Source of the DNA: an uncultured Bacilli bacterium
Lineage (GTDB): Bacteria > Bacillota_I > Bacilli_A > RF39 > UBA660
NCBI GenBank assembly: GCA_947624045.1
Contig: CANQIL010000005.1
Coordinates: forward strand, 149-64,148
DNA length: 64,000 nucleotides
Direction: 5' to 3'
Shown here: positions 5,077 through 64,000 of the stretch, in pieces
Layout: every line of letters starts with the position of its first letter
Position numbering within the stretch: the stretch's first letter is position 1
The notes under the pieces: model-generated
The model's database searches: none
Seen by the model: the letters and a program-made list of their open reading frames with translations, nothing else
Told to the model about the DNA's origin: nothing
Made by a program: the position numbers and the translations under genes

Positions 5077-5310
5077 CTAAATTTTTCTTCCTATATTTTC
5101 TGTATTAATTTCATCATTTGTATTTTTATTTTTAAAGATTATTTTGTAGTCACAAGCTGTGGCTATTTTTTCTATTATTTCAAAGGTTGGTTGAATTTTG
5201 CCTGTTTCATATTGTGATATAGTGTTTTGAGGGATATTAGTCATTTCAGATATTTCATTTTGCATTAATCTTTTATTCTTCCTCATTGCTTTTAAGATTT
5301 GCCCAATCAT
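5077..5310 (-). CDS. XRE/Cro HTH repressor (cassette 1)
   Basis: LKAMRKNKRLMQNEISEMTNIPQNTISQYETG HTH_3 pattern; divergent from the gene at 5433. Confidence 0.9.
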   Translation of the reverse strand: MIGQILKAMRKNKRLMQNEISEMTNIPQNTISQYETGKIQPTFEIIEKIATACDYKIIFKNKNTNDEINTENIGRKI

Positions 5311-5354
5311 TTTACATCACCAAAAGAATTATCTCATTTTTAAAGTGAAAATTC

Positions 5355-5411
5355 TTGAAATATCTGTAATACAGATATATAATTAAATTAATAATATCTG
5401 TTTAACAGATA
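5355..5411 (+). promoter_or_regulatory. Promoter plus two palindromic operators (cassette 1)
   Basis: TTGAAA(5355)-17bp-TATAAT(5378). The spacer is the palindrome TATCTGT-AAT-ACAGATA; a second copy TATCTGT-TTA-ACAGATA lies at 5395-5411. Confidence 0.8.
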
Positions 5412-5432
5412 AGTAAATTGGTTGGTGGTTAT

Positions 5433-7451
5433 ATGAATAGTAGAAAAACTAAATTAATTATAATAGCTTGTCTATGTGTGGCAGTACTTGGTTTATCAAT
5501 TGGCTATGCTTTATTATCAACAAGATTAAATATAACAGGTACCGCTAAAGTACCAGCTAATATGTGGAACGTAGTATTTTTAAAAAAAGATGTTATTATA
5601 ACTCCAACAGGTATGGCAAAATGTAGTTTAGGAAATATTGAAGGAACTAGTATTTCCGGAATGAGTGTAGAATTTACTAAACCAGGTGATGCTTGTACTT
5701 TTAGTATTCCTGTAGAAAATACAGGTAACATTTCCGCAAAATTAGTTGATGTTACAGGAAAAAGTTCTAATTTAACATTTGTAGGTAGTGGTAAGACTGC
5801 TTTAAGTGATCAAGATTTATTAAAAAGTAATGTAGTATATGAGGTCAATTATGGTAAAACAGCTATTAATGGAAATACTGATTTTTCAAGTATTGACTTA
5901 TTAAAAGCAACCACTAAAGAAACAGTAACTTTAAGAGTAACCTTTAATCATGATGCCGAGGATATTCCTAAAAATCCTGTAACAATAGGAGGTTTAGATA
6001 GAGGTTTTATCTTTGAAAGTTTAACCCAAGAAGAAAGCGAAGGACAAAGTGGATCAAGCTTAGATAATATACCAAATCCGCCTGAGTTAAATGGAGATAT
6101 GATACCAGTCTATTATGAAGCAACTAGTGATACAGAAGGCACATGGAAGAAAGCTGATATAAATAATGAAAATAATAATTGGTATGATTATAGTGAACAA
6201 AAGTGGGCTAATGCCGTAACAGTTACTTCTGATATAAGAGAAGAAATAAAAAAAGCTCCTGTTGGAACACCAATTGATATGAATAATATAAACACAATGT
6301 GGGTGTGGATACCAAGATATTCTTATACGATAAAAAGCGAAGATGGTGAAAATTATTATGGAAAAGCTAGTTTTGGAAACACTAATCCAACTCAGGTTTT
6401 GCCTGGTGAAATAGATGTAAAGTTTGTATCAAAAGTAACAGAAACGGGAACAGCTCAATATACAGGAAGTAATCCAACAAATTGGCGAACCAATGAAGCC
6501 TTTGATTTTGGAGGTGAAAAGAAAAGTGGAATATGGGTCGGTAAATTTGAAATAACAGGCAATTTATCAACATCAACAGAAGTTCAAGCATGTACAAATG
6601 AAACATGTGATGTAAGTAAAGTAACTATAAAACCAGATGCATCCTCTTTAAAAAATCAAACAGTAAGTAGCTTTTTCTATATGGCAAGAAGTATGCAAGT
6701 AAGTTATGATGATACCTATGGATTTAATGCAACTAGTGGTGATTTACACATGATAAAAAATGATGAATGGGGAGCCGTTGCCTACTTATCGCAAAGTAAG
6801 TATGGCAAATATGGTAACAGTGATTATACTGGAATCAATAAAGAAATATACATAAATAATCATATAAGTAAGACCGGCTATAGTGGAGGAAATCCCAATG
6901 CAAGTGAAAATGATGCGAAGTATGTATATAATGACATGACTAACTTAGAAACAGGACAAGGCCAAGCCGGCCCAGGCGCTTCAACAACTGGAAACATATA
7001 TGGATTATATGATATGAGTGGAGGGGCCTATGAATATGTAATGGGTGTTTTAGAGTACGATGCTCAAGGAATGAAAGATAATGAAGAAAAAATCGCAACA
7101 GGATCATCAGGATTTAAAGGCTTAAGTAGTAGTGGAAGTTTAATAGGAAAATATGATTTGCCAAATGAGAAATACTATAATAAATACAAAAGTGCTAATC
7201 CAACATCAAGTACTTGGTCATCAGCTAAACCAGAATCAGCTTGTAACGGTGGAATCTGTTATGGGCATGCTTTATCAGAAACTTCAAGTTGGTACGGTGA
7301 TTCTGCACATTTTATTTACCGTAGTTCTTCGTGGTTTGTACGCGGCGGCTCTTGTAGTTCTATCACGAGTGCAGGAATTTTCTACACGTATAACGTGAAT
7401 GGCAATTCCAACAACAACACTCGCTCTTGCCGTTTGGTTTTCACTCCATAA
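5433..7451 (+). CDS. Secreted TasA/camelysin-like + FGE-sulfatase/CLec protein with DGR-type variable C-terminus (copy 1)
   Basis: Signal/TM MNSRKTKLIIIACLCVAVLGLSIGYA; KPGD..F..PVENTG; CLec motif GNIYGLYDMSGGAYEY; VR-like tail WFVRGG..AGIF..NGNSNNN..CRLV. Confidence 0.8.
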   Translation: MNSRKTKLIIIACLCVAVLGLSIGYALLSTRLNITGTAKVPANMWNVVFLKKDVIITPTGMAKCSLGNIEGTSISGMSVEFTKPGDACTFSIPVENTGNISAKLVDVTGKSSNLTFVGSGKTALSDQDLLKSNVVYEVNYGKTAINGNTDFSSIDLLKATTKETVTLRVTFNHDAEDIPKNPVTIGGLDRGFIFESLTQEESEGQSGSSLDNIPNPPELNGDMIPVYYEATSDTEGTWKKADINNENNNWYDYSEQKWANAVTVTSDIREEIKKAPVGTPIDMNNINTMWVWIPRYSYTIKSEDGENYYGKASFGNTNPTQVLPGEIDVKFVSKVTETGTAQYTGSNPTNWRTNEAFDFGGEKKSGIWVGKFEITGNLSTSTEVQACTNETCDVSKVTIKPDASSLKNQTVSSFFYMARSMQVSYDDTYGFNATSGDLHMIKNDEWGAVAYLSQSKYGKYGNSDYTGINKEIYINNHISKTGYSGGNPNASENDAKYVYNDMTNLETGQGQAGPGASTTGNIYGLYDMSGGAYEYVMGVLEYDAQGMKDNEEKIATGSSGFKGLSSSGSLIGKYDLPNEKYYNKYKSANPTSSTWSSAKPESACNGGICYGHALSETSSWYGDSAHFIYRSSSWFVRGGSCSSITSAGIFYTYNVNGNSNNNTRSCRLVFTP

Positions 7452-7454
7452 TAA

Positions 7455-7475
7455 AACAGCAATTTTTTTGCTGTT
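7455..7475. terminator. Hairpin just after the copy-1 stop (bidirectional terminator, or DGR-type downstream hairpin)
   Basis: AACAGCAA-ttttt-TTGCTGTT between convergent genes. Confidence 0.6.
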
Positions 7476-7477
7476 AG

Positions 7478-7711
7478 TTAATTATTATCCTTAACGATTG
7501 ATTTTGGATATGGTTTTCTTTCATCGGTTCTATATAGTAAATAATCAACACTAGTATGATAAAAATCTGCTAGTTTTTTTAATGTATCAATAGGTATACT
7601 AATTTTTTCTAATTCATATTTACTATAATTAGATTGATCTATATTTAGATATTTAGCTATATCTTTTTGATATAAATCTTTATCTTCTCTTAATTCTTTT
7701 AATCTATTCAT
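7478..7711 (-). CDS. XRE HTH repressor (cassette 2)
   Basis: MNRLKELREDKDLYQKDIAKYLNIDQSNYSKYE..LADFYHTSVDYLL. Confidence 0.92.
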   Translation of the reverse strand: MNRLKELREDKDLYQKDIAKYLNIDQSNYSKYELEKISIPIDTLKKLADFYHTSVDYLLYRTDERKPYPKSIVKDNN

Positions 7712-7756
7712 ATTATCACGACCTAAATTACTTTTATCATAGTTATAAAATAACTA

Positions 7757-7813
7757 TTGACATATAGGCAGATTTTACCTATAATATTTTTTAAATAGGT
7801 AATATATACCTAT
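7757..7813 (+). promoter_or_regulatory. Promoter plus two palindromic operators (cassette 2)
   Basis: Perfect TTGACA-17bp-TATAAT; operators ATAGGCA-GATTT-TACCTAT (7764-7782) and ATAGGTA-ATATA-TACCTAT (7795-7813). Confidence 0.82.
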
Positions 7814-7843
7814 AGGATTAGAACGATTTTTAAAGAGGTAAAT

Positions 7844-9838
7844 ATGAATAATAGAAAAACTAAATTAATTATAATAGCTTGTCTTTGTGTAGCAGTATTA
7901 GGGTTATCTATTGGATATGCCTTGCTTTCAGCTAGTTTAAAGATAAATGGTACAGCTAAAGTAGAAGCTAAATGGGACGTAGTCTTTTTAGAAAATGAAA
8001 TTGATACTGTTCCTACTGGTACAGCAGAGTGTAATATAGGTACTGTTACTGGTACTTCGATTGAAGGCATGAGTGTTGTTTTTAATAAGCCGGGTGATTC
8101 TTGTACTTTTACAGTGCCTGTTAAAAATATAGGTACAATTCCTGCTAGATTAGTAGATGTAACAGGCAAGAGTTCTAATTTAACATTTTTGGGTAAATCA
8201 GCTGATCAAGATATTCTAAGAAGTAATGTAACATATGAAGTAAATTATGGAACAACTCAAATAAAAGGTACAACTGATTTTTCTACTATTCCTGTCTTGA
8301 ATGAAAAGGCAAAAGAAACAGTAACATTAAAGGCAACATTTTTAAATTCGTCTACGGAAATGCCAACAGGAGAAGTAATAATAGGCGGATTAGACAGAGC
8401 TTTTATTTATGAAAGTAACATAAATGGAGAGACTAGTGGTTCAATTACTCCAGTAGTAGATAATATTCCTAATCCACCTGAATTAAACGGTGATATGATA
8501 CCAGTTTATTATGAAAAAATAACTGATAAAACAGGTAATTGGAAGAAAGCCGATATAAATAATGAAAATAATAATTGGTATGATTATAGTAAACAACAAT
8601 GGGCTAATGCTGTAACTATTGTTTCTGATAAACGTGATGAGATAAAGCAGGCAGGAGTAGGTACTTCAATTGATATAAATTATATAAATACCATGTGGGT
8701 ATGGATACCAAGATACTCATATACAATAAAAAGCGAAGATGGAGAAAATTATTTTGGTAAAGCTAGTTTTGGTAACGATAATCCAACTCAAGCTTTGCCT
8801 GGCGAAATAGATGTCAAGTTTATTTCTAAAGTAACGGAAACAGGAACTGCTCAATATACAGGAATTACACCAACCAATTGGCGTACCAACGAAGCATTTG
8901 ACTTTGGAGGAGAAAAGAAAAATGGAATATGGGTCGGAAAATTTGAAACAACTGGTAGTTTAGAAGGAGGTGGTCAAGCCTGTGTAGATGAGACATGTAT
9001 TGTAAGTAATGTAACAATAAAACCTGGAGTAGAATCCTTAAGGAGTCAAACAGTAAGCAGTTTCTTTTATGCAGCAAGAAGTATGCAAAAAGATACCTCA
9101 ACTTTCGGATTTAGTGCAAAAAGTGGCGACTTACATATGATGAAAAATGATGAGTGGGGAGCAGTAGCCTATCTTTCTCAAAGTAAATATGGAAAATATG
9201 GAAATAGTGATTATACAGGAGTAAATAAAGAAATATACATAAATAACGATAGTGGTTATATAACAGGACACAGTGGAGGAAGCCCAAGTGCAAGTAGTTC
9301 ATCAACAAATTATGCCTACAATGATATGACTAATTTAGGTGAAGGACAAGGGCAAGTTGGACCTGGAGCTTCTACTACAGGAAACATTTACGGAATATAT
9401 GATATGAGTGGAGGTTCTTTTGAATATGTAATGGGTACGCTAGAATATGATGAACAAGGAATAGAAAAACATAATGGGCAAATCGCGACAGGTTTATCAG
9501 GATTTAAAGGTCTAGATAAAAATGAAAGTACAACAGGAAACTATGACTTGCCTAATGCTAAATATTATAATAAATATAAAAGTGCTAATCCAACATCGAA
9601 TAATTGGACATTAGCTAAACCTGAATCAGCCTGTAATGGTAGAATATGTTATGGACATAATTTAAGTGAAACGTCAAATTGGTATAATGATACTAGTATC
9701 TTTGCTAACTACGATAAGCCATGGTTCAGACGTGGTAGTGGCTATAATCAAACTACTGGTGCAGGAATTTTTTACATTTCTGTCCATACTGGTGGTTCAG
9801 ACAATTTTAGCCCTTGTAGATTAGTTTTAACACCATAA
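7844..9838 (+). CDS. Secreted TasA-like + CLec protein (copy 2)
   Basis: Paralog of the 5433 gene; GNIYGIYDMSGGSFEY; tail WFRRGS..AGIF..CRLVLTP. Confidence 0.8.
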   Translation: MNNRKTKLIIIACLCVAVLGLSIGYALLSASLKINGTAKVEAKWDVVFLENEIDTVPTGTAECNIGTVTGTSIEGMSVVFNKPGDSCTFTVPVKNIGTIPARLVDVTGKSSNLTFLGKSADQDILRSNVTYEVNYGTTQIKGTTDFSTIPVLNEKAKETVTLKATFLNSSTEMPTGEVIIGGLDRAFIYESNINGETSGSITPVVDNIPNPPELNGDMIPVYYEKITDKTGNWKKADINNENNNWYDYSKQQWANAVTIVSDKRDEIKQAGVGTSIDINYINTMWVWIPRYSYTIKSEDGENYFGKASFGNDNPTQALPGEIDVKFISKVTETGTAQYTGITPTNWRTNEAFDFGGEKKNGIWVGKFETTGSLEGGGQACVDETCIVSNVTIKPGVESLRSQTVSSFFYAARSMQKDTSTFGFSAKSGDLHMMKNDEWGAVAYLSQSKYGKYGNSDYTGVNKEIYINNDSGYITGHSGGSPSASSSSTNYAYNDMTNLGEGQGQVGPGASTTGNIYGIYDMSGGSFEYVMGTLEYDEQGIEKHNGQIATGLSGFKGLDKNESTTGNYDLPNAKYYNKYKSANPTSNNWTLAKPESACNGRICYGHNLSETSNWYNDTSIFANYDKPWFRRGSGYNQTTGAGIFYISVHTGGSDNFSPCRLVLTP

Positions 9839-46602: not shown

Positions 46603-48639
46603 TTAAGGTGTTAAAACTAACCGTGAAGTTGCATAAGTCACAGAATGACCTTCTCCTGCAGCTGAGTGAAATATTCCTGAAGTTGTAGAGTCATCATAAT
46701 AGCTTCCTCTTAAGGACCAAGGACGCTCATTGTATATAAATCCTGGATTATCATTATACCAACTTGCTGTTTCTGATAATGCTTGTCCATAACATATACT
46801 ATTATTACAAGCTTTAGCTGAATTAATAAGATATGAATTGCTTGGTATTGTTTCTTTGGTAGTGCCAACTTTATATAAGTTATAATATTTTTCTTCTGGA
46901 AATTTTATAGCTGGATTATTTGTATAATCAGGATAATTACCATTTTCATATATTTTTCCTTTAAATCCTGAATTATTTGTTGTTGAGTAACCGCTCAACG
47001 GTGTATATGGATATTCATAGTAAGCTAATACTCCCATTGTCCTATCCCAAGCTCCTCCACTCATATCGTATATTCCATAAATATTTCCTGTTGTTGAAGC
47101 TCCAGGTCCAGCTTGACCTTGCCCTTCACCTAAATTAGTCATATCATTATAAGCATATGTTGTTGCTGAACTACTAGCGTTTGGACTGCCCCCACTTTTT
47201 CCAGTTATGTAAAAACTATTATTTATAAATATTTCTTTATTCAAACCAGTATAATCACCATTTCCATATTTACCATACTTACTTTGGGATAAGTAAGCCA
47301 CTGCTCCCCATTCATCATTTTTCATTGTATGTAAGTCACCAATATTTTTATTAAATCCATAAGTACTTGCATTATTTAACTGCATACTTCTTGCCATATA
47401 GAAATAACTACTTACTGTTTGACTTCTAAGTGATGATAACTCTGGTTTTATTGTAACTTTACTTGTATCACATAATTCATTTATGCAAGCTTGGTCATTA
47501 GTTAATAAGCTTCCAGTAGGTTCAAATTTGCCGACCCATATTCCACTTTTCTTATCTCCTCCAAAGTCAAAAGCCTCGTTGGTACGCCAATTGGTTGGGG
47601 TATTTCCTGTATATTGAGCTGTCCCTGTTTCTGTTACTTTTGAAATAAACTTTATATCTATTTCTCCTGGTAAAAGAGCCGTTGGACTAGGATTTTCAAA
47701 ACTGGCTTTGCCAAAGTAATTTGTTCTGTCTTCACTTTTTATTGTATAACTATATCTTGGTATCCATACCCACATTGTATTTATATCTTTCATATCAATT
47801 GGAGTTCCAACAGGCTCTTTTTTTATTTCTTCTCTTACATCAGAAGTAACTGTTATAGCATTGGCCCATTTTTGATTATTATAATCATACCAATTATTGC
47901 TTTCATTATTTATATCGGCTTTCTTCCACTCACCTGTTGTTGTACTAGTTGCTTCATAATAAACTGGTATCATATCTCCATTTAACTCTGGTGGATTTGG
48001 TATATTATCTAGGCTCGAACCGCTTTGCCCTTCACTTTCTTTTTCAGATAAGCTTTCAAAAATAAAACCCCTATCTAAGCCTCCTAACTTAACAGGACTT
48101 TTAGGAATAGCATCAGCACTATGTTTAAAGGTTACTCTTAAAGTTATTGTTATACTATTGTCTGCTTTTAATAATTCAATATTTGAAAAATCAGTATTGC
48201 CATTTATTTGAGTAGTACCATAATTCACTTCATATATTACATTTTTTTGTAATAATTCTTGGTCACTTAATGCTGTTTTACCACTACCAACAAAGGTTAA
48301 ATTAGAACTTTTTCCTGTTACATCTACTAATTTAGCGGAAATATTTCCGGTATTTTTTACGGGTATACTAAAAGTACAAGAATCTCCTGGTTTAGTAAAT
48401 TCGACACTCATTCCGGAAATACTAGTTCCCTCAATATTTCCTAAACTACACTTAGCCATTCCTGTTTCAGTTTTATTAATTTCTTCTTCTAAAAATATTA
48501 CGTCCCACGTATTAGCTGGAACTTTAGCTGTTCCGGTTATATTTAATCTTGTTGACAATAAAGCATAGCCAATAGATAAGCCTAAGACTGCCACGCAAAG
48601 ACAAGCTATTATAATTAATTTAGTTTTTCTACTATTCAT
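46603..48639 (-). CDS. Secreted TasA-like + CLec protein (copy 3)
   Basis: MNSRKTKLIIIACLCVAVLGLSIGYA identical to copy 1; GNIYGIYDMSGGAWD; tail PWSLRGS..SGIF..SRLVLTP. Confidence 0.8.
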   Translation of the reverse strand: MNSRKTKLIIIACLCVAVLGLSIGYALLSTRLNITGTAKVPANTWDVIFLEEEINKTETGMAKCSLGNIEGTSISGMSVEFTKPGDSCTFSIPVKNTGNISAKLVDVTGKSSNLTFVGSGKTALSDQELLQKNVIYEVNYGTTQINGNTDFSNIELLKADNSITITLRVTFKHSADAIPKSPVKLGGLDRGFIFESLSEKESEGQSGSSLDNIPNPPELNGDMIPVYYEATSTTTGEWKKADINNESNNWYDYNNQKWANAITVTSDVREEIKKEPVGTPIDMKDINTMWVWIPRYSYTIKSEDRTNYFGKASFENPSPTALLPGEIDIKFISKVTETGTAQYTGNTPTNWRTNEAFDFGGDKKSGIWVGKFEPTGSLLTNDQACINELCDTSKVTIKPELSSLRSQTVSSYFYMARSMQLNNASTYGFNKNIGDLHTMKNDEWGAVAYLSQSKYGKYGNGDYTGLNKEIFINNSFYITGKSGGSPNASSSATTYAYNDMTNLGEGQGQAGPGASTTGNIYGIYDMSGGAWDRTMGVLAYYEYPYTPLSGYSTTNNSGFKGKIYENGNYPDYTNNPAIKFPEEKYYNLYKVGTTKETIPSNSYLINSAKACNNSICYGQALSETASWYNDNPGFIYNERPWSLRGSYYDDSTTSGIFHSAAGEGHSVTYATSRLVLTP

Positions 48640-48656
48640 ACTTATCGCCCTTTCAT

Positions 48657-48712
48657 TATGTGCTTTGCACATATTATATTATAAATATATACGTAAAACA
48701 CATAAAAGTCAA
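48657..48712 (-). promoter_or_regulatory. Promoter plus two operators (cassette 3)
   Basis: Minus strand TTGACT-17-TATATT; perfect palindrome TATGTGC-TTT-GCACATA (48657-48673) and a degenerate copy at 48688-48704. Confidence 0.7.
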
Positions 48713-48747: not shown

Positions 48748-48972
48748 GTGATGTTGATGAGAATTAAAGATTTAAGAGAGGATAATGACTTACCTCAAAA
48801 GAATGTTGCCGATGTCTTAGGAATAACTCAAGCTCATTACTCGAGAATTGAACGAGGTATTTATCAACTTTCTTATGAAGAACTAAAAAAATTAGCTTTA
48901 TTTTATAATACAAGTATTGATTATATATTAGATTTAACTAATATAAAAGAGCCCTACCCTAGAAAAAAATAG
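48748..48972 (+). CDS. XRE HTH repressor (cassette 3)
   Basis: MRIKDLREDNDLPQKNVADVLGITQAHYSRIERG..LALFYNTSIDYIL. Confidence 0.92.
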   Translation: MMLMRIKDLREDNDLPQKNVADVLGITQAHYSRIERGIYQLSYEELKKLALFYNTSIDYILDLTNIKEPYPRKK

Positions 48973-49022: not shown

Positions 49023-49790
49023 TTATACTTTACGAGACTGAATCTCGGCTATTTTTTCAAATACTTCTTTAGCATTATCTTCATTTATTTCTGTAAAACC
49101 TAACTCTTTTAAAGCTTGTACTTTAACAGTATTAAGTTCTTGAGTACGAGATAATTTTTCTTCTTTCTTTTGCTCAATATTTTGAACAAATCTTTTATGA
49201 GACTCACCTAGTTTATTTTTAGAAGCACCACCATTATTATATAGTGTCATAGCACTAAAGATAATACTTTCAAAAATAAATTGCTTATCCTTATTAAAAG
49301 TAAACTCCATTGGGTCGGTAAAACCTAATGACTTAGACATATAAGCTAAGATATACTTTAATTCTTCAGTTGTCTCCATTGATTGTAAAAAATGATAAAG
49401 ATAAAGTAAAGTATTATAAGACTCCTTTGTTTTATCATTAGAAAGCTTTTCTTTTAAAATATTAATAATTTCTGATAAAAGCTCTTGTTCTTTCTTATTA
49501 AAGCCCTTTAAATCAGCTAATACTTCTTTATTAGAAATATCTTTTACTCCTTCATTTAAGCGATTTTCTACTTCAATAATATATTCGCCTGTTACTTTAA
49601 TATTGACTAATTCACCTATGCTTTCAACATTTAATAAACTTAAAAGTTTAGCAGCTTTTTCTTTAGGCCAATCACTAATATTATCAATTGCTAGATAATT
49701 ATAAAGCATTTGTCTTGATACACCCAAATATTTAGCTAAACGTACCTTGCTTATTCCTAATTCGGCAAGCTTCTTGTTTAATTCTTTCAT
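49023..49790 (-). CDS. N-terminal HTH protein of unknown function
   Basis: LAELGISKVRLAKYLGVSRQMLYNYL; promoter TTGATT-17-TATAAT overlapped by GTGTAAAT direct repeats (49824, 49838). Confidence 0.7.
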   Translation of the reverse strand: MKELNKKLAELGISKVRLAKYLGVSRQMLYNYLAIDNISDWPKEKAAKLLSLLNVESIGELVNIKVTGEYIIEVENRLNEGVKDISNKEVLADLKGFNKKEQELLSEIINILKEKLSNDKTKESYNTLLYLYHFLQSMETTEELKYILAYMSKSLGFTDPMEFTFNKDKQFIFESIIFSAMTLYNNGGASKNKLGESHKRFVQNIEQKKEEKLSRTQELNTVKVQALKELGFTEINEDNAKEVFEKIAEIQSRKV

Positions 49791-63808: not shown

Positions 63809-63967
63809 TTATGGCATTAAAACTAAATGGCAAGAATAATTATGGGTGAAGTTGCCATTGTTGTTGTCTACACCGAATACTCCCACAAGCGTGCTATCAA
63901 AGTAGTTGCCACCGCGATAAAACCAAGGATGAACACGGTACACAAAGAGTCTGTAATCACCATACCA
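63809..63967 (-). pseudogene. 3' end (variable region only) of a fourth CLec paralog
   Basis: WYGDYRLFVYRVHPWFYRGGNYFDSTLVGVFGVDNNNGNFTHNYSCHLVLMP* aligns with the tails of copies 1-3; the sequence upstream of it is non-homologous. Confidence 0.8.
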
Positions 63968-64000
63968 CCCGAGTTTGACAGTTGATAGAAATTGAAAAAG
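63967..64000. mobile_element. Probable IS982-family terminal inverted repeat (element extends beyond the window)
   Basis: ACCCGAGTTTGACAGTTGA begins exactly where paralog homology breaks; it fits my recollection of IS982 ends (ACCCGA..TT..AGTT). Confidence 0.5.

Follow-up and report, generated by a model that had tools for sequence, protein, structure and literature searches.

The subject of this work is a regulatory cassette of an uncultured Bacilli bacterium (GTDB lineage RF39, UBA660), in which a minimal XRE-type gene stands back to back with the gene of a surface protein. The window, i.e. the whole stretch of 64,000 nucleotides that was analysed, covers positions 149-64148 of contig C5 (CANQIL010000005.1) in a 1.65-Mb draft genome of 83 contigs with 27.7% G+C (assembly GCA_947624045.1), referred to below as G000; G006 denotes a genome of the same genus. 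Three full-length surface-protein genes (S1, S2 and S3) are present in the window, each divergent to a small gene (X1, X2 and X3) for a helix-turn-helix (HTH) protein of the HTH_3/XRE type with 72-77 amino acids (aa), from which it is separated by the intergenic regions IG1, IG2 and IG3, respectively (Table 1). The first-pass annotation, made from the sequence and a list of its open reading frames (ORFs), had described all three full copies as divergently paired with an XRE gene of about 75 aa, and this is confirmed here, all three X proteins scoring above the HTH_3 cut-off. The genes X1, S1, X2 and S2 follow each other in this order between queA and the gene of a P-type ATPase, and S3 and X3 lie ~40 kb from this first cluster, between deoB/DUF1540 and a conserved gene for a 255-aa HTH protein. 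On their far sides, the X genes all have convergent neighbors (queA for X1, S1 for X2 and the 255-aa HTH gene for X3). A terminator-like hairpin between the convergent S1 and X2 genes would shield X2 against read-through from S1. The start codon of X3 is likely the ATG at 48757, which by-eye reading places after GGTGA.

Table 1. Genes, promoters and predicted operators of the three XRE/surface-protein loci (window positions; promoters are given with the number of matches to the sigma-A-type consensus out of 12)
Feature	Position	Strand	Details
X1, 77-aa XRE/HTH_3 regulator, helix QNTISQYE	5077..5310	-	PF01381, 47.6 bits (cut-off 23)
S1 promoter, TTGAAA-17-TATAAT	5355..5383	+	11/12
IG1 operator O1, TATCTGTAATACAGATA (TATCTGT-AAT-ACAGATA)	5361..5377		exactly fills the 17-bp spacer of the S1 promoter
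IG1 operator O2, TATCTGTTTAACAGATA (TATCTGT-TTA-ACAGATA)	5395..5411		34 bp downstream of O1, center to center; S1 leader
S1, 672-aa surface/secreted protein	5433..7451	+	AlphaFold (AF2) model, Foldseek
Terminator-like hairpin, AACAGCA-N7-TGCTGTT, T runs on both sides	7455..7475	both	between convergent S1 and X2
X2, 77-aa XRE/HTH_3 regulator, helix 3 QSNYSKYE, tail ...TDERKPYPKS	7478..7711	-	PF01381, 48.7 bits
X2 promoter, ATGTCA-16-TATGAT	7736..7763	-	9/12
IG2 operator O3, ATAGTTATAAAATAACTAT (ATAGTTA-N5-TAACTAT)	7739..7757		fills the spacer of the X2 promoter
S2 promoter, TTGACA-17-TATAAT	7757..7785	+	12/12, best match in 5-10 kb
IG2 operator O1, ATAGGCAGATTTTACCTAT (ATAGGCA-N5-TACCTAT)	7764..7782		one mismatch; spacer and first 3 nt of the -10 hexamer
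IG2 operator O2, ATAGGTAATATATACCTAT (ATAGGTA-N5-TACCTAT)	7795..7813		perfect; 31 bp downstream of O1
S2, 664-aa S1 paralog	7844..9838	+	
S3, 679-aa S1 paralog	46603..48642	-	
IG3 operator O2, TATGTGCAAAGCACATA (TATGTGC-AAA-GCACATA, minus-strand reading)	48657..48673		perfect; between the S3 -10 hexamer and the ribosome-binding site
S3 promoter, TTGACT-17-TATATT	48684..48712	-	10/12
IG3 operator O1, hybrid/imperfect (TTATGTG...CGTATAT on the S3 strand)	48687..48705		in the spacer of the S3 promoter
X3, 72-74-aa XRE/HTH_3 regulator, helix QAHYSRIE	48748..48972	+	PF01381, 56.9 bits

Within their regions, the promoters of S1-S3 rank first or close to first among sigma-A-type matches, and each of them is overlaid with palindromic sites. 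According to the first-pass annotation, a palindrome fills the spacer of each promoter and a second copy lies about 30 bp downstream; this stands for IG1 and IG2 and for the downstream site of IG3, where the spacer copy is only an imperfect hybrid. The claim that the operators differ between the loci is borne out: the three palindromes are distinct and no perfect operator recurs outside its own locus, the two IG1 sites being the sole two perfect copies of their palindrome in the 1.65-Mb genome and the downstream IG3 site the only genome match at up to 2 mismatches. IG2 contains a third, symmetric variant site (O3), which was absent from the earlier list, has 2 mismatches to the O2 consensus and is kept in the 12 loci that share the helix of X2. 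The -35 hexamers of the S2 promoter (7757-7762) and the X2 promoter (7763-7758) share 5 bp. Inspection by eye gave no convincing O3-like site for IG1 and no convincing, clear XRE promoter for IG3.

X1 is ~31% identical to X2 and X3, which are 47% identical to each other. The recognition helices QNTISQYE, QSNYSKYE and QAHYSRIE had been quoted correctly in the first-pass annotation and do differ. In an AF2 model of X2 (predicted local distance difference test (pLDDT) 84.5), five helices span residues 3-10, 15-22, 26-33, 41-50 and 55-58, QSNYSKYE being helix 3 (residues 26-33), and the X proteins end ~15 residues past helix 5. The X2 homodimer model scored 0.58, the best of 3 controls 0.02; among proteins of known structure, 20 of 30 one-chain pairs and 1 of 23 single chains attain that mark. 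Three dimer runs agreed in at least 95% of contacts with a partner pLDDT of at least 86; the modeled dimer may, however, reflect only the likeness of X2 to solved XRE dimers rather than prove dimerization. Its interface comprises helices 4-5 and a conserved tail (residues 54-73). This tail, ...DYxLxxT(D/N)xxKPYP(K/R), is kept across members of differing DNA specificities and is missing from the X1-type XREs and from those of the C16/C72 type (named after two other contigs of the genome). By sequence, the closest solved relative is the Xre-type regulator of ICEBs1 (7t8i, E 2.7e-15), and other solved relatives include PezA, DdrO, 434 repressor, P22 C2, CylR2, C.BclI/C.AhdI and SinR. Searches of NCBIfam, PHROGs and PADLOC returned only generic HTH names, with weak CapH-like and "Control_protein" matches in PADLOC, and a reading of the XREs as parts of a defense or toxin-antitoxin system was dropped, there being nothing in these three databases in its favor.

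The evidence that the palindromes are operators comes from repeated half-sites, fixed register and covariation. A loose count of palindromic sites, in which the 7-nt arms could differ at up to one position, discriminated poorly, with a mean of 1.83 sites upstream of XRE-paired genes vs 0.88 upstream of unpaired ones and most per-locus shuffle fractions above 0.1, and was therefore replaced by tests for repeated half-sites and for a fixed frame. Exact 6-mers with at least 2 G/C that occur at least 2 times in both orientations within 130 bp upstream were found for 5 of 14 XRE-paired genes of G000 and for none of 47 unpaired paralogs; shortening the half-site to 5-mers gives 6/14 and 0/47. The same design, each time with a sequence of its own, recurs on contigs C1 (GAGTAT-N5-ATACTC), C9 (TAGACT-N5-AGTCTA), C13 (ATAGYTCA-N3-TGAGCTAT, three copies), C30 (TACACGC-N3-GCGTGTA) and C72 (ATAGTAAT...ATTACTAT). 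The fixed-frame set comprised 58 loci (9 from G000 and G006 and 49 of 80 related loci described below), of which 49 had a callable promoter. When the 19-mer ending 3 nt into the -10 hexamer is taken as frame 0 and compared arm to arm (7 nt), at most 1 mismatch is found in 28 of 49 loci and at most 2 in 38 of 49, and each of 24 shifted frames yields only 0-2 of 49 loci at the 1-mismatch limit.

Furthermore, the sequence of helix 3 and that of the half-site vary together. The helix DQSNYSKYE goes with the half-site ATAGGTA in 12 loci including that of X2, SQTGYSQYE with ATAACTT in 6 loci and SQTGYSKYE with TTAACCY in 5 loci; SQTNYSKYE goes with ATAGTCA, TQVAYSCYE with ATATAGC and TQ[AP]QYSRYE with ATATGCG/ATATACG, and there are several singletons besides. 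Thus, the covariation across relatives that the first-pass annotation had proposed to survey does exist, mostly with one helix type per half-site. The 12 X2-helix loci are conserved only at O3, the -35 hexamer, O1, the -10 hexamer and O2, and their leaders and target genes (187-804 aa) differ.

The relatives were collected by a search with a profile of ten X2-type XREs against contigs from one genome per species, which returned 574 relatives; the best 80 of the 574 were examined. For 44 of these 80, there is a divergent ORF of at least 100 aa whose start is 60-260 bp distant, and 39 of the 44 divergent targets carry an N-terminal hydrophobic segment; among the ORFs of G000 with at least 150 aa, a crude control, 364 of 1206 have one. 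Divergent neighbors of the S family account for 9 of the 80. Among 29 targets compared with Pfam, DUF285 was found in 4 (one of them also with a Cellulase domain), DUF6273 in 3, fn3 in 2 and Big_2, Flg_new, FGE-sulfatase and PGA_cap in 1 each; 15 lacked a family. The modular cassette of a repressor and a surface gene with locus-specific operators, as envisaged in the first-pass annotation, therefore exists, and the XRE gene and the intergenic sequence as far as O2 behave together like a portable unit, which has come to stand before many unrelated genes for secreted or surface proteins of gut Firmicutes.

An X1-like gene of G006 is 77% identical to X1 and has the same helix, with TATCTGT palindromes in the same two positions, and the S gene behind these operators is only ~35% identical to S1-S3. 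The X1 orthologue at the queA locus of G006 is 57% identical, has the helix QTTLSGYE and faces a 274-aa gene whose product has an N-terminal hydrophobic segment; here, one copy of TAACGAG-TAT-CTCGTTA exactly fills the promoter spacer and is followed 34 bp downstream by another. G006 also has a gene 63% identical to X2 with the helix QQQYSEYE, which is accompanied by ATACATGAAATTTCATGTAT. The X3 orthologue is 82% identical with an identical helix and the same hybrid O1 (L037:3230-3290). In both genomes, the spacer operator of X3 mixes the half-site types TATGTG and TATACG.

Conservation of the pairing is patchy. No XRE or S insert is found at the queA locus of the related genomes G001, G002 and G005. 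At the deoB locus of G006, an 887-aa S gene stands opposite an X2-like gene, and the gene opposite the X3 orthologue encodes 266 aa; the G001 locus pairs a 64-aa XRE with a facing gene of 219 aa, and G002 and G005 have no cassette there. Adjacency to an XRE is common mainly in G000 and G006: ~5 XRE/S pairs occur beside ~33 S-family matches in G006, and none among the listed matches in G018. The expectation that the pairing would be conserved in relatives is thus upheld by the G006 pairs and contradicted by G018 and by the genomes with empty queA or deoB loci.

Within G000 itself, the cassette is one of three alternative promoter cassettes in a family of 62 S genes of at least 450 aa (fragments are found in addition), the poly-G cassette being the commonest alternative. 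A divergent small HTH/XRE gene adjoins 12 of the 62, and at two further, split-gene loci (C13 and C14) the XRE gene is divergent to a short upstream gene for the N-domain. The statement that every variable surface gene is equipped with a private XRE switch consequently holds for the window and fails for the family. The poly-G cassette, TTGACA-N9-G(9-11)-TATGMT, precedes 30 of the 62 genes if C16 is counted, plus 1 with an interrupted tract (e.g., G000:C9:5650-5800 and C16:27900-28010); most of the 38 G/C runs of at least 8 in the genome lie in such promoters, and no G/C run of 6 or more is present upstream of S1, S2 and S3. A third conserved promoter, "type B", precedes 7 of the 62. It is a conserved upstream region of ~110 bp (...AAGTAAACCATAAATCTACA...TGTATAAT...) without poly-G or XRE, found on contigs C2, C10, C14, C19, C30, C36 and C39 upstream of paralogs beginning with MDSRKQKY. 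Another 12 S genes have other upstream regions, 6 of them directly following a short N-domain gene on the same strand, and 1 more has too little upstream sequence for assignment. HTH_3 matches number 38 in the genome, of which 13 are adjacent to S genes.

In a quick maximum-likelihood tree restricted to 35 full-length paralogs (640-700 aa; the other 27 of the 62 were excluded), 9 XRE-linked rows require 8 changes vs a shuffled mean of 8.1, with the caveat that mosaic recombination may blur the tree of S paralogs. Promoter types are scattered over this tree, and therefore the regulatory cassette appears not to be inherited with the coding sequence; co-inheritance of an XRE with its S gene was rejected by the same comparison. 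Exchange of cassettes may be visible on C16 (27500-28100, L058), where an XRE near-identical to those on C72 and on contig C55 of G006 lies 211 bp from an S promoter of the poly-G type and where the ATAGTAAT...ATTACTAT operators of its relatives are missing; this XRE looks like a regulator orphaned by replacement of the promoter cassette.

Taken with the gene order, the promoters, the palindromes and their register, the uniqueness of the sites in the genome, the helix-operator covariation and the supported dimer model, all of which were computed here, these arrangements lead us to infer DNA binding, repression and autoregulation by the XREs: each small XRE is probably a dedicated local repressor of the adjoining surface-protein gene and of its own gene. 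An XRE dimer would bind palindromes of 17-19 bp with locus-specific inner bases, which are set in a fixed register on back-to-back promoters with overlapping -35 hexamers. O1 would cover the spacer and the -10 edge of the strong surface-gene promoter, and O2, about three helical turns downstream, the start site and the leader, so that occupation of both would block RNA polymerase and turn the surface gene off. At loci of the X2 type, binding to the weaker variant O3 in the spacer of the XRE gene's own weaker promoter would result in negative autoregulation. Judged by their near-consensus sequences, the S promoters would need no activator.

Several findings weigh against such a uniform model of local repression. 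Frame 0 has more than 2 mismatches in 11 of 49 loci, and no promoter could be called in 9 of 58. The spacer site of IG3 is a poor palindrome, with 3 mismatches between the 7-nt arms and ~4, counted by eye, relative to the perfect site, and the XRE on C16 adjoins a poly-G promoter and has no matching operator. Loci sharing one helix are close relatives, and so the per-group helix counts are not independent events. In addition, the G006 orthologue of X3, whose helix is identical, has the downstream site TATACGT-AAT-ACGTATA vs TATGTGC-AAA-GCACATA in G000, so the helix-operator rule is not strictly one-to-one; both sites fit TAT-R-Y-G, which suggests either that recognition of TAT-R-Y-G is degenerate or that the operator is at an intermediate stage of change. 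Finally, the XREs lack a sensor domain.

The simplest rival, namely that the palindromes are products of chance in AT-rich DNA or act as RNA hairpins or terminators, with the XRE genes as unrelated neighbors, draws on the weak separation of paired from unpaired genes by the loose statistic (1.83 vs 0.88) and on the fact that 48657-48673 is listed as terminator-like on the plus strand. However, the O1 sites lie in untranscribed promoter spacers, the register is found in 28 of 49 loci vs 0-2 of 49 for shifted frames, the perfect sites are unique in the genome, and the palindromes co-vary with helix 3 and are kept while their flanks diverge; we consider this explanation extremely improbable. It is also improbable, to a lesser degree, that the XREs are activators or dual activator-repressors like the controller (C) proteins of restriction-modification (R-M) systems. 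There is a weak sequence likeness to C.BclI, C.AhdI and the PADLOC "Control_protein", and C-boxes likewise consist of two adjacent operators of unequal quality. Yet the target promoters already match the consensus at 10-12 of 12 positions with 17-bp spacing, and the operators occupy positions inside the spacer and across the start region from which a bound protein obstructs RNA polymerase. The loci have no R-M genes as neighbors, and their genes are divergent rather than co-transcribed.

Two further possibilities are compatible with repression and concern how it is relieved or maintained. The X2-type XREs could be inactivated together by a shared protease or anti-repressor that recognizes the conserved tail, so that their cassettes would be co-induced. 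The retention of the tail across members of different DNA specificity speaks for such relief, as do the closest solved relative from ICEBs1 and the weak CapH-like match, given that ImmR and CapH are relieved by M78-type proteases, and one HTH-M78 peptidase gene is encoded in the genome (C1:128094-128888). On the other hand, the tail lies in the predicted dimer interface, which is sufficient to explain its conservation, no gene for a protease or anti-repressor adjoins any cassette, and XREs of the X1 and C16/C72 types have no tail; this kind of relief is rated as unlikely. A special case of local repression would be a bistable epigenetic switch, in which the overlap of the -35 hexamers means that polymerase at one promoter should exclude polymerase at the other: high levels of XRE would keep the surface-gene promoter off and the XRE promoter accessible, and loss of XRE would let the surface-gene promoter take over and keep XRE low, each state being heritable per cell. 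The 5-bp overlap in IG2 with its unequal promoters (12/12 for S2 and 9/12 for X2), the two strong sites ~31-34 bp apart, which suggest cooperative binding, and the weaker O3 kept as such in 12 loci are all consistent with it. Moreover, heterogeneous expression would suit a family in which poly-G promoters, well known as a means of phase variation, precede most members. Against it, there is a single regulator and no Cro-like antagonist, O3 predicts negative autoregulation, which favors one stable state, and promoter exclusion is deduced from geometry alone. The phage-like form of bistability suggested in the first-pass annotation requires two antagonistic regulators and is at variance with the one regulator found per intergenic region, the other gene being that of a surface protein; bistability in the single-regulator form described above is possible, on the doubtful side. 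A wider proposal, that the XRE cassette is a protein-based heritable switch making each surface variant individually bistable and thus, together with poly-G slippage, one of two parallel phase-variation systems acting on one antigen family, is regarded as speculative and rather doubtful.

Returning to local repression as the preferred explanation, the cassette can be compared by analogy with Cro/CI-type local repressors at divergent overlapping promoters, and it appears most similar in function to CylR2. CylR2 of Enterococcus faecalis, a 66-aa XRE repressor of the cytolysin operon, is encoded by a gene divergent to its target with a promoter overlapping that of the target, binds the target promoter, and is co-transcribed with the membrane protein CylR1 in a quorum-signal relay (PMC3709268). 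Both are minimal XREs without a sensor domain and divergent to the target, and CylR2 matches the X2 profile (1utx, E 1.4e-6). In contrast, X1-X3 genes stand alone without a co-transcribed membrane transducer, and where CylR2 serves a single operon, this one genome has 14 private pairs with 2-3 operators each, placed before surface proteins. SinR/SlrR of Bacillus subtilis is a system with an XRE-type repressor of the tapA-sipW-tasA operon for a secreted fiber, with cell-to-cell heterogeneity (PMC3917956, PMC6123443). It shares with the cassette the theme of an XRE repressor acting on a surface protein, SinR matches the X2 profile (1b0n, E 3e-4), and S1 has a weak fold match to TasA (see below). 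However, SinR has 111 aa in 1b0n vs the 72-77 aa found here. It possesses a C-terminal multimerization domain and the antagonists SinI and SlrR, and it is a global regulator acting on GTTCTYT sites whose gene is not known to stand divergently back to back with its target, whereas the X proteins have no such C-terminal domain and no adjacent gene for a small antagonist.

The lambdoid, 434 and P22 CI/Cro repressors belong to the same HTH fold family (434 repressor 1per, E 2.3e-7; P22 C2), their specificity is set by helix-3 residues, and they too use three graded, spaced palindromes between divergent promoters. The cassette differs from them in the lack of a second antagonist and of a prophage context, in its target, a structural surface protein, and in the placement of its operators in promoter spacers in a fixed register. 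Controller genes of R-M systems have C-boxes upstream and are co-transcribed with the endonuclease gene; the neighbors of the X genes have no R-M domains and the arrangement is divergent. The ImmR/ImmA and CapH/CapP pairs include an adjacent gene for an M78-family protease, which is not found next to the X genes. The only Peptidase_M78 match in the genome (PF06114, ImmA/IrrE-like; C1:128547-128888) is on another contig, fused to HTH_3 in the 354-aa frame of the HTH-M78 gene named above (L141), and is a candidate for a protease acting on XRE repressors. As with simple-sequence-repeat promoters, such as the poly-A promoters of Mycoplasma vlp genes and the poly-G promoters of 30 of the 62 paralogs here, members of a large surface family are controlled one by one, but S1-S3 have no repeat tract and rely on a protein with operators, not on slippage.

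Small Cro/CI-like repressors with palindromic operators are classical. A search of the literature on divergent XRE-adhesin repressors, RF39 diversity-generating retroelements (DGRs) and RF39 phase variation found no description of the cassette. It is unusual that one 1.65-Mb genome has ~14 private repressor-operator pairs for a single 62-gene surface family, that the same cassette recurs in exact promoter register before unrelated adhesin-like genes in many uncultured gut Firmicutes, and that helix 3 and the inner operator bases change in step, forming a clear natural series. If the XREs bind as predicted, the cassettes would explain the gating of individual surface variants in unculturable gut bacteria, and they would provide a compact orthogonal set of repressors and promoters for synthetic biology as well as data for rules of XRE-DNA recognition. 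Should the heritable-switch proposal also be true, the helix-operator pairs would amount to a ready-made orthogonal repressor library with a readable recognition code.

The regulated proteins S1, S2 and S3 are 64-72% identical in pairwise comparisons. An AF2 model of S1 from a 40-sequence alignment (pLDDT 81.6, predicted template modeling score 0.69) consists of an N-terminal hydrophobic helix (4-31), a beta domain (47-196), a linker and a large C-terminal domain. Foldseek matched the model best to the DGR variable protein TaqVP (5vf4, E 4e-9, probability 1.0) and more weakly to the TasA fiber (8aur, rank 5, probability 0.44), Mtd (rank 6) and TvpA (rank 37), so the C-terminal domain is predicted to be C-type-lectin-like, of the type found in DGR variable proteins. 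Comparison of the S proteins with Pfam gave only sub-threshold FGE-sulfatase or DUF11-like matches, and NCBIfam, PHROGs and PADLOC gave none. The family is large, with 4658 homologues at E <= 1e-10 among 8000 candidates scored. Within the same bacterial family, 11 of 18 genomes had matches to it, with ~18-38 each in G001, G006, G011 and G018, and the 12 other genomes searched (1 of the same order and 11 of the same class) had none. S-family N-termini read ...LSIGYALLS..L.I.GTAKV (window 5433-5530), and those of many other XRE-guarded targets ...ATYAYF... or ...VGYAAF... (among L084, L095, L125, L063, L067 and L090); we take these to resemble the SipW-type signal of TasA and camelysin. Prepilin-like N-termini are seen in the other targets L086, L093, L115, L116 and L133.

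Although the S1 model resembles the DGR C-type-lectin variable proteins TaqVP, Mtd and TvpA in fold, and true DGR targets are found among the other paralogs of the genome, S1-S3 have neither a template repeat (TR) nor a nearby reverse transcriptase. Reverse transcriptases are encoded on contigs C1, C29 and C62, with a broken one on C22, and true targets, recognized by adenine-only or adenine-dominated mismatches between the variable repeat (VR) and the TR, lie on C1, C21, C29, C41, C3, C60, C22 and C13. Compared with the template regions, S1 is only 71-72% identical and has mismatches at all four bases, no DGR template repeat matched S2 or S3, and genome-wide blastn searches with the 3' ends of S1-S3 returned only paralog coding regions with mixed substitutions. 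S1-S3 as current DGR targets were rejected, no TR with adenine-only mismatches having been found, and on these comparisons they are paralogs of DGR targets rather than current targets. The idea that expression switching is added to sequence diversification therefore does not apply to S1-S3.

Two further genes of the window touch on these loci. The 255-aa protein with a weak N-terminal HTH (49023-49790, minus strand), whose gene adjoins X3 and spoIIM, is 85-95% identical and in the same position in G001, G002 and G005; as it is kept in these three genomes, all of which lack the S3/X3 cassette, it belongs to the core genome and lies outside the cassette. At the contig end, a 76-aa ORF (~63809-64000, minus strand) matches only the last ~50 residues of the S proteins, is 47% identical to S1 residues 620-672 and has the appearance of a VR- or TR-like remnant.

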